This document shows positions 9,334-35,354 of a stretch of DNA of 35,354 bases, piece after piece. The notes below the pieces were generated by a model, which made no database searches, had not been told where the DNA came from, and saw only the letters and a program-made list of their open reading frames with translations. Numbering within the stretch: the stretch's first letter is position 1; every line of letters starts with the position of its first letter. Source of the stretch: Escherichia coli (GTDB lineage Bacteria > Pseudomonadota > Gammaproteobacteria > Enterobacterales > Enterobacteriaceae); assembly GCF_003334355.1 (NCBI RefSeq), contig NZ_QOWP01000035.1. One strand, given 5' to 3'. The position numbers were made by a program, and so were the translations under genes.

Positions 9334-9503
9334 AATGGCTCACTCAAGCTTGCTCACGATTGATTCCAGTAACAAACCGTATTGTGTAATTATTTCTATA
9401 GCAGCTCGCTATATAGGCTTGTATACATCGAATAATTTGAAAATCAAAGAGATAGGTAGATTTTCACTCGAAAGTAGTATTACGTGTAAGTGAGGAGTAA
9501 TTA

Positions 9504-9517
9504 TTGTTCGGTATCAA
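9504..9517 (-). promoter_or_regulatory. FNR box of the dmsA promoter (TTGAT-N4-AACAA on minus strand)
   Basis: Plus strand ttgttcggtatcaa = minus TTGATaccgAACAA, close to the FNR consensus TTGAT-N4-ATCAA; about 170 bp upstream of dmsA ATG; dmsABC is a known FNR-activated anaerobic operon. Confidence 0.6.
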
Positions 9518-9525
9518 AGGGAGAC

Positions 9526-9551
9526 AAAAAAAGCGCCCGCAGGCGCTTTTT
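9526..9551 (-). terminator. Rho-independent terminator downstream of serS
   Basis: aagcgcc-cgca-ggcgctt hairpin flanked by A6 and T5; on the minus strand the hairpin is followed by a U-run, 21 bp after the serS stop. Confidence 0.75.
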
Positions 9552-9571
9552 AGATTCAGAAAAATTGGGTA

Positions 9572-13074: not shown

Positions 13075-16000
13075 TTAGTCAAACGGCGGTGGGGCCAGCA
13101 CTTCACGATTACCGTTGTGCCCCTGTTCGCTGACAATCCCCTGCGCTTCCATCTGTTCGATAATACGCGCTGCACGGTTATAACCAATGCGGAACTGACG
13201 CTGTACGCCAGAAATTGACGCTTTGCGTTTTTCAGTGACAAACTGCACCGCCTGATCGAACAACGGATCCAGTTCTTCAGCGCCATCGAAACCACCCGCA
13301 CCACCTTCGCTTTCGCTGTCGGAGGTGATGCCATCAACATACTGTGGGCGACCACGCGCTTTCCAGTCCTGCACCACGGCATGAACTTCCTGATCGCGAA
13401 CAAAAGCACCATGGACACGTACCGGCAACGTGGAGTTCGGCCCAGAGTAGAGCATATCCCCCATACCCAGCAGTGATTCCGCGCCAGCCTGATCAAGAAT
13501 GGTACGTGAGTCAATCTTACTGGATACGGTAAAGGCGATACGGGTCGGAATATTCGCTTTAATCAGACCAGTAATAACATCAACCGATGGACGCTGAGTT
13601 GCCAGTACGAGGTGGATACCCGCGGCACGGGCTTTTTGCGCCAGACGTGCTATCAGCTCTTCCACTTTTTTACCTACCGTCATCATCAGGTCGGCAAATT
13701 CGTCAACCAACACCACAATGTATGGTTCTTTTTTCAGCACCGGATGCTGGGCATCCATACTGTCACCCGGCTTCCAGTACGGGTCTGGAATCGGACGCAT
13801 CATGCGATCGGCTTCAGCAATTTTTTCGTTATAACCCGCCAGATTACGCACACCCAGCGCAGACATCAGTTTATACCGACGCTCCATCTCGTTAACACAC
13901 CAGCGCAGCGCGTTGGCGGCATCTTTCATATCAGTAACGACTTCCGTTAACAGGTGCGGAATGCCTTCATACACCGAAAGCTCCAGCATTTTCGGGTCGA
14001 TCATGATGAAACGCACATCTTCTGGCTGTGCTTTATAAAGCATGCTCAGGATCATCGCGTTCACACCGACAGATTTACCGGAACCGGTAGTCCCCGCAAC
14101 CAACAAGTGCGGCATTTTCGCCAGATCGGCAACCACCGGCTCACCGGCGATATCTTTACCCAGCACCACGGTTAATGGCGACGGATTATCGCGGAATTTG
14201 GCGTTATCCAAAACTTCGCGCAGATAAACGGTTTGTCGTTTTTTATTTGGTAACTCCAGACCTACATAGGGTTTGCCAGGAATAACTTCAACGACACGCA
14301 CCGCCACCGTCGAAAGTGAACGGGCAAGGTCCCGTGACAAGTTAGAAATGCGCGCCGCTTTTACGCCAGGAGCCAGGTTAAGTTCAAAGCGAGTGATAAC
14401 CGGCCCCGGAGAGTAATTGACGACATCGGCTTTAATACGGAAATCAGCCAGACGCGCTTCCACCAGACGAGCCATTTGTTCAAGCGCAAAGGTATCTACC
14501 GGCTCCACTTCGCTCGGCGGCGGTGTCAGCAAATCCAGAGAAGGCAGCGGCGTCGTCGGTTTATGCAACGGACGGCTGTCGCCATTACGCATCAACAGCG
14601 GATGAAGCAGGGTATCCTGCGGTTGTGGCGCAACTGGCTGTTGTGGCTGCTGATACTGCTGCTGCGGCGCAACCGGTTGTTGCGGCTGCTGATATTGCTG
14701 CTGTGGCGCAACCGGTTGTTGCGGCTGCTGATATTGTGGCTGCGGCGCAACCGGCTGTTGTGGCTGCTGATACTGCGGCTGCGGCGGAACTGGTTGTTGC
14801 GGCTGCTGATATTGCTGCTGCGGTGCAACCGGTTGTTGCGGCTGCTGTACAGGTTCAACAATTGGCGTAAACAACGGTTCGTGTGGACCATCATCCAGCA
14901 ACGCTTTCATTGGCGAAAATTCAAAATCATCCAGCGAGAACGGATTCGCCCCAGCCGGTTGTTCGCCGGAATAACGTTGTTGTTGAGTTTGCGCAAACTG
15001 ACGAGCCAGTTCAGCCTCTGCCGCAGCATCTGCATCTTCTGCGTTTACGGGCACATCATGTTGATACTGTTCGCCATAGCGTTGCTGCTGTGTCTGGGCG
15101 AACTGACGTGCCAGTTCATCCTGCTGCATCGCATCGATTTCATCATCGTTGTACTGATCGCCAGAATCGTACTGATTGCGCTGGGCTTCACGGGCTTTTT
15201 CTTCCGCCGCACGCTGTGAGGGCAGCTTAATACCGTAAGACGCCAGTTCACGACGAGTTGGCACGCGGATACGTTTCGGTCGTGGCAACTGCGGACCAAT
15301 CCCCTCTTTGACCTGAGGACGCGGTCCACCGCTATTTGCCAGACTGAAGACTGGCGCGGCAACGGTTGCGGCAGCCCCCGTCGCCAGTGTCGCTTTTTTC
15401 ACGCCAGATGCCAGCGGGGAAACAGCGGCAGCGGCTTCTACTGGAGGTACTGCTGCAACAGAAGGTGCTTTCAGCGAAGATTTGATCGGTTCTGGTTCTT
15501 TAACCGGTTCTGGAATCGGTTGATACCAGGCCGCAAGTTGTTCACGTTCACGGGCTCGCTTCTCTTCAACTTCTTCAAAGTAGTAAAGCGGCGGACGCGC
15601 GGGTTTTGTCTCTTCTACAACGGGTTCAGGCTCCACAACAGGCTGCTGTTCAACGGGTTGCGGCTGTTGGTACAACGGCTCCTGAGCGGCTGGCTGCTGA
15701 TAAGTTTGCTCAGTCTGGTATGTAGACTGTGGAGCAAAAGTGGATTGCTGCTCTTCGGCTTGCCAGGCGTTACCTGCCACCGGTTGTTCTGGCGCAGGGG
15801 CATAATACGGCTGTTGCGCAGGTTGTTCAGCTGCAGGTGCATAATACGGCTGCTGCGGCTGTACTGGTTGTTGCAGCGGCTCATTATATTGCACTGCAGG
15901 CTGCGCATATTGTGACTGCTGTGGGTAACCTTCCGGTGCAGGAGCAATAACCGGCTCTCCCGTTTGTGGACCCGGTACAGGCTGCCAGGCTACTGTAGGT

Positions 16001-23841: not shown

Positions 23842-24063
<222 letters not shown>

Positions 24064-24101
24064 TTGTTTTACCGCCTGATGGGCGAAGAGAAAGAACGAG
24101 T

Positions 24102-24132
24102 AAAAGGTCGGTTTAACCGGCCTTTTTATTTT
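24102..24132 (+). terminator. Rho-independent terminator downstream of infA
   Basis: ggtcgg-tttaa-ccggcc hairpin (24106-24122, one G-U pair) followed by tttttatttt. Confidence 0.75.
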
Positions 24133-24244
24133 GTGATATGTATGAAGTACTTTGGAAGTATAAGTCCATAACTTGTCTCGATGTAGATATACTGCACAAG
24201 TTGTTTACAGTATGAGCAAACAATAATTATCATTAAAATTCTTC

Positions 24245-24273
24245 TTGACCGTTTTACTCCAACTCCCTATAGT
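24245..24273 (+). promoter_or_regulatory. Sigma70 promoter of serW (TTGACC-17 bp-TATAGT)
   Basis: -35 TTGACC (24245-24250), 17-bp spacer, -10 TATAGT (24268-24273), GC-rich discriminator agcgccccg, AT-rich upstream region; typical stable-RNA promoter about 40 bp upstream of the tRNA. Confidence 0.7.
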
Positions 24274-24316
24274 AGCGCCCCGTTGCCACCCATGAGGTTT
24301 GGCAGCAAAACAATTT

Positions 24317-24404
24317 GGTGAGGTGTCCGAGTGGCTGAAGGAGCACGCCTGGAAAGTGTGTATACGGCAACGTATCGGGGGTTCGAATCCCCCCCTCACC
24401 GCCA
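24317..24404 (+). tRNA. serW: tRNA-Ser (anticodon GGA), 88 nt, class II with long variable arm
   Basis: GGTGAGGTGTCCGAGTGGCTGAAGGAGCACGCCTGGAAAGTGTGTATACGGCAACGTATCGGGGGTTCGAATCCCCCCCTCACCGCCA: 7-bp acceptor stem, anticodon loop CTGGAAA, T-loop GGTTCGAATCC, encoded CCA. Confidence 0.95.
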
Positions 24405-24417
24405 TATTTAAAGAAGA

Positions 24418-24445
24418 GCTCGTACGAAAGTGCGAGCTTTTTTTT
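24418..24445 (+). terminator. Rho-independent terminator downstream of serW
   Basis: gctcgtac-gaaa-gtgcgagc hairpin (8-bp stem, GNRA tetraloop) followed by T8 (24438-24445). Confidence 0.8.
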
Positions 24446-24447
24446 CG

Positions 24448-24652
24448 CATTTTATCTGTCTGTACGGCAGTGAACATGGTGGGTGGAGTATGTTACCTGT
24501 GAATTTCTAAGCTGCCTGTACGGCAGTGAACGCCAACTTTCACAGCCTTTGCAAGATTGTTCCTTTCTAAGCTGCCTGTACGGCAGTGAACGTTCGCTGC
24601 AACCGCTAGCCAAGACGGTAGGTTTTTCTAAGCTGCCTGTACGGCAGTGAAC
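24448..24652 (-). CRISPR. Orphan type I-F CRISPR array: 4 repeats (one degenerate), 3 spacers, no adjacent cas genes
   Basis: Perfect 28-bp repeats at 24504-24531, 24564-24591, 24625-24652 (plus strand TTTCTAAGCTGCCTGTACGGCAGTGAAC; minus strand GTTCACTGCCGTACAGGCAGCTTAGAAA, the I-F repeat with CTGCC/GGCAG hairpin); degenerate terminal repeat 24448-24475 keeps the 3' 16 nt; spacers 28, 32 and 33 bp; repeat orientation puts the leader on the clpA side. Confidence 0.9.
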
Positions 24653-24800
24653 TCAAATACTACACGTTTAGCCCGTTGTTAATAAAGCAAAACCATCCCA
24701 TTCTCCTGCAGCACCCTTTTTTATCCTTACCTTCCAGCAGCACTAATTATCAACAACTTACCTTCACCTCCAAAAATAGGGTTTTCACCGTTCCACCCCA

Positions 24801-24840
24801 TAAATAAAAAGTCCGTAACCTCTTTCGAGATTACGGACTT
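24801..24840 (-). terminator. Rho-independent terminator downstream of clpA
   Basis: aagtccgtaa (24809-24818) / ttacggactt (24831-24840) 10-bp inverted repeat; A/T-rich run 24801-24810 gives a U-tract on the minus strand; 24 bp after the clpA stop. Confidence 0.7.
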
Positions 24841-24863
24841 GACCAACCTACCTGACAATCAGA

Positions 24864-27140
24864 TTAATGCGCTGCTTCCGCCTTGTGCTTTTGTGCACTC
24901 TGGAATCCGTAAGTCAGCTCATTTTTCGCTTTATCCAGTGCGACGGTGACCTGACCGCCGTCCACCAGCGAACCAAACAGCAGTTCGTTGGCGAGCGGTT
25001 TTTTCAGGTTGTCCTGGATGACACGCGCCATCGGACGAGCGCCCATTGCCCGGTCGTAACCTTTCTCGGCCAGCCAGTTACGCGCTTCCTGGCTCACTTC
25101 CAGAGAAACACCTTTCTGATCCAGCTGAACCTGCAACTCGACGATGAATTTATCCACCACCTGATGGATCACGTCGGTTGACAGATGATCAAACCAGATA
25201 ATGTTGTCGAGACGGTTACGGAATTCCGGTGTAAAGATCTTCTTGATCTCTTCCATCGCATCGGTGCTGTTATCCTGGTGGATAAGACCAATGGATTTGC
25301 GCTCAGTTTCCCGTACCCCGGCGTTGGTGGTCATCACCAGCACCACGTTACGGAAGTCTGCTTTGCGTCCGTTGTTATCGGTCAGCGTACCGTTATCCAT
25401 CACCTGCAACAGAATATTGAACACGTCCGGGTGCGCTTTCTCGATTTCGTCCAGCAGCAGCACCGCATGTGGATGCTTGATGACCGCATCAGTCAGCAAA
25501 CCGCCCTGATCAAAACCAACGTATCCCGGAGGCGCACCAATAAGACGGCTGACGGTATGGCGTTCCATATACTCGGACATATCAAAGCGCAGAAGCTCAA
25601 TGCCCAAAGCTTTCGAAAGCTGTACCGTCACCTCTGTTTTCCCGACCCCGGTAGGGCCGGCAAACAGGAACGAACCAACCGGTTTATGTTCGTGACCTAA
25701 ACCTGCACGCGCCATCTTAATGGCTTCAGTCAGCGCCTCAATGGCTTTATCCTGACCGAAGACCAGCATTTTCAAGCGATCGCCGAGGTTTTTCAGGGTA
25801 TCACGATCACTCTGAGAAACACTCTTCTCTGGAATGCGTGCAATACGGGCCACCACGGACTCAATATCCGCCACATTAACGGTTTTCTTGCGTTTGCTTA
25901 CCGGCATCAGGCGTGCGCGAGCGCCCGCTTCGTCGATAACATCAATGGCTTTATCCGGCAGATGACGATCGTTAATGTATTTCACCGCCAGCTCTACCGC
26001 CGCACGCACCGCTTTTGCGGTATAACGCACGTCGTGGTGCGCTTCATACTTCGGTTTCAGGCCATTGATGATTTGAACAGTTTCTTCGATCGACGGTTCA
26101 GTAATATCAATTTTCTGGAAGCGACGCGCCAGAGCACGGTCTTTCTCGAAAATGTTGCTGAACTCCTGATAGGTTGTCGAACCAATTACACGAATTTTAC
26201 CGCTGGAGAGCAACGGTTTGATTAGGTTAGCCGCATCGACCTGACCACCAGACGCTGCACCCGCACCGATAATGGTGTGGATCTCATCAATAAACAGGAT
26301 GCTGTTAGTGTCCTGCTCCAGCTGCTTGAGCAACGCTTTAAAACGTTTTTCAAAGTCGCCGCGATATTTTGTGCCCGCTAACAGAGAACCGATATCGAGA
26401 GAGTAAATCGTACAGTCAGCCATCACTTCCGGCACATCGCCCTGAACAATTCGCCAGGCAAGACCTTCCGCAATCGCGGTTTTACCGACACCAGATTCCC
26501 CCACCAGCAGCGGGTTGTTTTTACGGCGACGGCAGAGAACCTGAATAGCACGCTCCAGCTCCTTCTCACGACCAATCAGTGGGTCGATTCCGCCCACGCG
26601 CGCAAGCTGATTCAGGTTCGTCGTGAAATTCTCCATACGTTCCTCCCCACCAGCTTGTTCTTCGCTGTTTGGCTGGCTGCCAGGATCAGAAGACTGTGTC
26701 GGCTCGTCTTTACGCGTGCCATGAGAGATAAAGTTCACCACATCGAGACGGCTGACTTCATGTTTACGCAACAGATATGCCGCCTGCGACTCCTGTTCGC
26801 TAAAGATAGCGACCAGAACGTTTGCACCGGTAACCTCATTGCGACCGGAGGACTGGACATGGAAGACCGCACGTTGCAGTACACGCTGAAAACTCAGCGT
26901 CGGCTGTGTGTCGCGCTCCTCTTCACTGGCAGGCAGAACGGGTGTGGTTTGTTCAATAAAGGCTTCCAGTTCCTGACGGAGCGCAACCAAATCCACAGAA
27001 CACGCTTCCAGCGCCTCCCGGGCAGATGGGTTACTGAGCAGCGCCAGTAACAAGTGCTCGACGGTCATAAACTCATGACGGTGCTCGCGCGCTCTGGCGA
27101 AAGCCATATTTAAACTGAGTTCCAGTTCTTGATTGAGCAT
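24864..27140 (-). CDS. clpA: ATP-dependent Clp protease ATP-binding subunit ClpA, 758 aa
   Basis: ORF track 24864..27155 (TTG-initiated) trimmed to ATG at 27140 ([19 protein letters not shown]); two AAA+ modules (GESGVGKT and GPTGVGKT). Confidence 0.95.
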
Positions 27141-27491: not shown

Positions 27492-27813
27492 TGTCAGTTA
27501 TCATCTTCGGTTACGGTTATCGGCAGAACGCCCTGCCGCTGACAAGAGCTTATTTGCCTGACCAATCTACTCCACATGATAGATAACTATCATCTATCGT
27601 TGGCATCAGCGACATCTGTCACATTCCTGTCAATAGCGTTAACTGCTTCAAATTTTTGATTCATACCTGCCCCTTGTCCCCTGTCAAATGCTTGACGGCT
27701 CGCCCTAATTCTCTAAATTGTATTTCTAGAGTTGGCGAGGTTTTGAACAGCCCCCTCTCTGACCCCGGTTTATTCCATCTTACTTGTATAAGATTTGCGA
27801 AGGATGTCGAAGC

Positions 27814-35207: not shown

Positions 35208-35354
35208 ACCCCCGGGCTCTGGCGAACAAAATCGCCGCTGCGCGGTGCCCTCGACTTATCCCTTACGGCTACCGGGTCGGGCGCGAGGTAACATATATGG
35301 ACGCTCCCGGAATGCAATGCTTTCTTCAGTTATGTAATAAAACGGGTAGGTGCA

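Follow-up and report, generated by a model that had tools for sequence, protein, structure and literature searches.

The islands closest to the locus studied here are OI-43 and OI-48 (SpLE1) of Escherichia coli O157:H7, the tellurite-resistance and adherence island. In strain EDL933 these are inserted at serW and serX, respectively, and both are flanked by the perfect 14-bp direct repeat TGGCGGTGAGGGGG, the same repeat that borders the Shigella SRL island (Bielaszewska et al., PMC3064760). Excision of OI-43/48 by recombination between the repeats was shown experimentally in O157 strains to be complete and precise, restoring intact serW or serX (PMC3064760), and a review lists serW, or serX/serW, as a site for both SRL-PAI and the PAI I-CL3/LAA variants (PMC7545054). 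The experiments on integrase-dependent integration and excision at this site concern O157 and Shigella strains (PMC3064760, PMC7545054). The same chromosomal interval is also known from the CRISPR literature. Almendros et al. 2014 (PMC3903273) described a CRISPR-III locus of type I-F arrays between clpA and infA, in a paper where neither the word serW nor the word tRNA occurs, and Almendros et al. 2016 (Nat Microbiol 1:16081) described orphan CRISPR4.1-2 arrays with anti-cas spacers, for which, according to the summary in PMC8616872, both expression and interference against incoming I-F cas genes were reported.

Here we compare these systems with an infA-clpA interval from a non-O157, commensal-type E. 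coli background, using the whole 35,354-nucleotide stretch of contig in which it lies (hereafter the window). By the annotation of near-identical genomes the window is core chromosome from ycaK to aqpZ, with housekeeping genes throughout, and serW is the sole tRNA gene that ARAGORN finds in it. We conclude that the interval is very probably the unoccupied attB of islands carrying P4-type tyrosine integrases, namely OI-43/48, SRL-PAI and related mosaics. The O157:H7 and Shigella flexneri SRL attachment sites use the same gene, the same 14-bp core and the same infA/serW and clpA flanks, and differ in that the window holds no insert; its empty form equals the intact serW that amplification yielded from O157 strains lacking the island or cured of it (PMC3064760).

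The interval is bounded on the left by infA, encoding translation initiation factor IF-1 (23845..24063, plus strand, a 72-aa ORF annotated as infA in near-identical genomes), and on the right by clpA (24864..27140, minus strand), whose stop codon begins at 24864 and to which the annotated clpA of strain TA8571 maps. From the ORF list the spacer between them (24064–24863) is exactly 800 bp, in agreement with the 0.8 kb of the preliminary description, and it contains no ORF longer than 90 aa, cas ORFs included. A terminator scan finds three terminator-like hairpins in it, which are the intrinsic terminators of infA (24102..24126, plus strand, an 11-pair stem and T-run), serW (24410..24445, plus strand, a 16-pair hairpin and T8 run) and clpA (24809..24840, minus strand, a 14-pair stem). 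Upstream of serW a consensus scan detects a putative sigma-70 promoter (24245..24273, plus strand; TTGACC, 17-nt spacer, TATAGT; 10/12 matches) that may drive the tRNA gene, and from 24236 onward the sequence is conserved in strains with a type I-F cas module as well. serW itself (24317..24404, plus strand; ARAGORN, Rfam tRNA 53.8 bits) is an intact, CCA-ending tRNA-Ser(GGA), and is identical at 88/88 nt to serX of K-12, where the serX terminator is also nearly the same 46-bp sequence as that of serW.

The position of the crossover follows from occupied genomes. The attL junction of CP131_Sichuan aligns identically to the window up to 24404, and the attR junctions of NCTC 86 and CRE1540 are identical to it from 24391 onward; as these overlap only over 24391–24404, the shared core is 14 bp and comprises the last 14 nt of serW (CCCCCTCACCGCCA, plus strand). 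This core is the reverse complement of the published repeat at 14/14 positions and is present as a single copy in the window, as expected of an unoccupied site; with this one attB copy, the spacer stays at 800 bp. The 3' end of serW is intact and is followed by its terminator, the CRISPR array and the clpA terminator, just as the preliminary description had stated, and its claims that neither an integrase nor a duplicated tRNA 3' fragment is present also held. Searches of both strands of the 35-kb window with 28 nt and 19 nt of the serW 3' end (allowing up to 3 mismatches) and with the 14-nt core (allowing up to 2) recovered no copy besides serW itself, where 0 to 0.2 hits were expected by chance. 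Three integrases, two from serW islands and one from a satellite, were compared with the window by tblastn and revealed no integrase remnant, the best match (E = 0.03) lying within clpA. Thus neither of the features named in advance as contradicting an empty site, a direct repeat of the serW 3' end or an integrase remnant nearby, was found in the window. The closest genomes, PSS-12, LR-45 and 2EC1, are human faecal isolates ~100% identical to the window over 15 kb, and their site is likewise empty.

To place this single site in the population we surveyed 5,426 complete E. coli genomes, the sample for all counts given here, and for the final junction counts we used serW-specific flanks, as serX shares the tRNA and nearly the same terminator. 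The empty serW junction occurs in 5,138/5,426 genomes (94.7%) and the serW-specific attL junction, indicating an island between serW and a cryptic 14-bp ser'W copy, in 285/5,426 (5.3%), so that the attL junction explains all but 3 of the 288 genomes without an empty junction. The serW-specific attR junction with an integrase end was found in at least 191 genomes. When the two loci were not separated, an integrase end lay beside a serW- or serX-type core and terminator in 1,264 genomes, and we therefore estimate that ~1,000 further genomes have an island at serX or at an RtT-followed serW; serX is probably the main site and takes most insertions. Many of the occupied genomes are O157:H7, and the independent integration events are therefore fewer than 285. 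serW is thus a genuine and recurrently occupied site, but a minority one, and while its description as an island attachment site stood, the term "hotspot" is overstated at 5.3%. Two other counts were discarded: the 5,318 "intact" genomes obtained with a query of serW, terminator and degenerate repeat are meaningless because serX meets the 80% coverage rule, and the 4,393 compact genomes obtained with the whole interval under-count empty sites because RtT repeats or longer arrays split the match. The further suggestion that prophages use serW found no support, in that the phage collection contains no E. coli phage with a serW 3'-end attP; the only full-length match came from a 2-kb "Salmonella phage" fragment, probably a piece of host DNA.

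In the three island-carrying genomes inspected (NCTC 86, CRE1540 and O157 strain 180-PT54) a 400-aa tyrosine recombinase is encoded ~160 bp from attR at the clpA-proximal end. The island integrase matches an NCBIfam integrase-domain model at E = 3.5e-55, a score below the curated cut-off, and it is on the literature that we assign it to the P4 family. At the opposite, serW-proximal end lies a module usual for such islands, with genes for DUF4942, the CbtA/CbeA toxin-antitoxin pair, antirestriction and Ag43, and the cargo varies by genome, including iro, afa, type I restriction-modification and DarTG in NCTC 86 and Zorya in 180-PT54. Paired junction coordinates give island sizes of ~35, 43, 46, 59 and 90 kb. 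We propose that the integrase would recombine the 14-bp core of the circularised island with the identical serW end at 24391–24404, in a manner that would rebuild an intact serW on the infA side. On the clpA side there would then remain the integrase gene, the native terminator of serW and a second copy of the 14 bp as a cryptic ser'W. This strain could presumably accept an island at serW.

The preliminary description had also offered the window as a clean empty-site reference. Empty it is, but as a reference it adds nothing, since an empty serW is the norm in the species and K-12 already fills this role. In K-12 the genes around serW are ordered as they are here, serW is likewise empty, the terminators are the same and there is again an orphan CRISPR4 array, with 98.5% identity over the 95% of our 1.7-kb query that is covered. 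The K-12 region measures 1,585 bp, 116 bp less than the 1,701 bp of the query, and its alignment falls into two pieces, which fits roughly two fewer repeat-spacer units.

The interval varies between strains for reasons other than islands. RtT-type tandem repeats of 178 bp, the Rfam RtT element also known from tyrT and serX, sit directly after the serW terminator in 972/5,426 genomes (17.9%), as in strain TW11681 (L002:19308-20060), and three RtT units follow serX in K-12 (L008:3900-4580). They are absent from the window, which gave no RtT match at Rfam's gathering threshold and in which the tRNA 3' end occurs only once. Every unit ends with another copy of the final 19 nt of the tRNA and, after it, the terminator, so that the 14-bp att core is multiplied 3–4 times with no island present. 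A duplicated serW 3' end is therefore a non-specific sign of an island and no proof of an att remnant, and a whole-genome search with this end, which had been proposed as a check, would also match the RtT repeats and, given its sequence identity, serX. Comparing the infA-clpA interval with that of island-carrying strains, the other proposed check, proved equally unreliable, since RtT repeats (18%) and I-F cas genes (4.4%) both change the distance.

The remaining part of the spacer is occupied by what had been called a "CRISPR relic". An array is indeed there, but its identity is that of a known orphan CRISPR4 array with anti-cas3f spacers. The type I-F array (24448..24652, minus strand; Rfam CRISPR-DR4, 3 × 50.1 bits; repeat family D1) consists of three perfect 28-bp repeats (24652–24625, 24591–24564 and 24531–24504, each a CRISPR-DR4 match) and, from repeat analysis, a degenerate terminal repeat (24475–24448), which enclose spacer 1 (33 nt, 24624–24592), spacer 2 (32 nt, 24563–24532) and the leader-distal spacer 3 (28 nt, 24503–24476), all on the minus strand. 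The orientation of the repeats and the position of the degenerate one at the far end suggest that the A+T-rich stretch at 24653..24808 (minus strand) is probably the CRISPR4 leader, and the same sequence flanks the clpA-side array of I-F carriers. Spacer 1 matches cas3f of strain TK3889 at 31/33 positions and spacer 2 at 31/32, on opposite strands, and both protospacers are preceded by 5'-CC, the I-F PAM; in UTI89 the matches are weaker, with 3–4 mismatches. Spacer 3 matched nothing in the I-F cas operons and loci examined except the same array in near-identical strains. Compared with the orphan arrays that Almendros and colleagues of the Mojica group described, we see the same 28-bp type-4 repeats, the same position, the same lack of cas-F genes and the same kind of cas3f spacers with CC PAM, and we found no difference beyond the window array being one spacer variant.

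These observations raise the possibility that the main feature of the interval is a decayed type I-F CRISPR-Cas locus enclosing serW, and that the spacing is short because the cas-F operon and the infA-side array were lost or are absent. The two I-F carriers examined, TK3889 and UTI89, are arranged as infA, CRISPR, serW, cas6f through cas1f, CRISPR and clpA, which places serW between two arrays, and their cas operon starts ~110 bp past serW, at the very point where the window's degenerate repeat begins. Moreover, 241/5,426 genomes (4.4%) carry cas1f, the repeats of the window were confirmed as I-F, and the two leader-proximal spacers were confirmed to match cas-F genes, with the CC PAM at their cas3f targets. 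Considering that serW lies between the two arrays, loss of cas-F cannot have been a simple recombination between them, a point that the CRISPR-III paper (PMC3903273) does not raise. On the infA side, the I-F haplotype has a CRISPR array and 260 bp of leader-like sequence in place of the 108 bp (24128-24235) that separate the infA terminator from the serW promoter in the window, and a homology search of this segment of the window against the I-F haplotype gave no match. The reading of the interval as an I-F locus is already published (PMC3903273, and Almendros et al. 2016, cited in PMC8616872). It is also compatible with an unoccupied attB, as both can be true and the core is intact in the window and used in 285 genomes. 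As an account of the main feature we therefore give it only tentative credence. The I-F carriers differ within serW itself. Both have an allele with a compensatory T-stem pair, G>C at 24377 and C>G at 24393 (L005:4740-4827 and L014:3439-3526, compared with the window), of which the latter alters position 3 of the 14-bp core to read CCGCC... instead of CCCCC.... One might speculate that the locus is contested between the I-F module and the serW islands, such that the serW allele records both CRISPR status and island permissiveness. We think this improbable, but if it were true, I-F carriers would be poorer integration targets, and strains that have lost cas-F, such as this one, would have both a perfect attB and an anti-cas array.

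The core variant of the I-F carriers also bears on whether serW of this strain might be unusable as an attachment site, for example because its sequence differs from the preferred target of the islands. That variant shows that non-identical cores exist, but nothing in the window points this way: its core agrees with the island repeat at 14/14 positions and the whole tRNA and 46-bp terminator match those at occupied sites, which makes an unusable site scarcely credible. An island that was once here and precisely excised, restoring attB, would be harder to recognize, because precise excision, as shown for OI-43/48 in O157 strains (PMC3064760), leaves no scar and the resulting sequence would look identical to the window. 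Against a post-excision rather than a never-used site stand the lack of any scar, second core or integrase fragment in the window, the equally empty site of PSS-12, LR-45 and 2EC1, and the 94.7% of genomes that are empty, for which a lineage never occupied is the simplest reading; past occupancy thus appears unlikely to us. We retain the unoccupied attB as our interpretation of the interval.

Several other features of the window were noted in passing. TA8571, the best match to the 1.7-kb region, carries a satellite integrase 3 kb from serW, and we considered whether the window holds a similar mobile element; this was ruled out, as the alignment shows the element to be absent and its site empty. 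In TA8571 the clpS–yljB site is taken by a 10.7-kb PICI-like satellite that encodes a tyrosine integrase, a primase, major capsid and head decoration proteins and a small terminase; the direct repeat on either side of it is imperfect and reads about ATGATA(G/A)ATAACTATCAT. In the window the corresponding position (27576-27597, overlapping the yljB 3' end) is a second empty attachment site, present as a single uninterrupted copy. The last 60 nt of the window (35295-35354) diverge from all of the closest genomes and correspond to one end of an insertion sequence of the IS110 family, which has inserted into the repeat-rich stretch downstream of aqpZ; this end occurs in 175/5,426 genomes, and in strain N3, between copA and ybaP, it adjoins a gene for an IS110 transposase. 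The dmsA–serS spacer contains an Rfam match (9424-9558, 140 bits) to STnc130, a known enterobacterial sRNA. Internal tandem repeats in the linker region of ftsK (14614-14847) produce offset self-matches against TA8571, and the annotated ftsK is 3,990 nt in TA8571, 4,005 nt in TW11681 and 4,107 nt in strain 100416.

Taken as a whole, the finding of an empty serW attB is accurate but is established knowledge; what is mildly new is peripheral to it, namely that serW lies inside the I-F locus and, in I-F carriers, has a T-stem variant that changes the island core by one base, and that RtT repeats multiply the att core. The lesson for method is that the infA–clpA distance and a duplicated tRNA 3' end are both unsafe indicators of an island. 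An empty attB exact to the coordinate, combined with population counts of its occupancy, may help in the typing of islands in E. coli.
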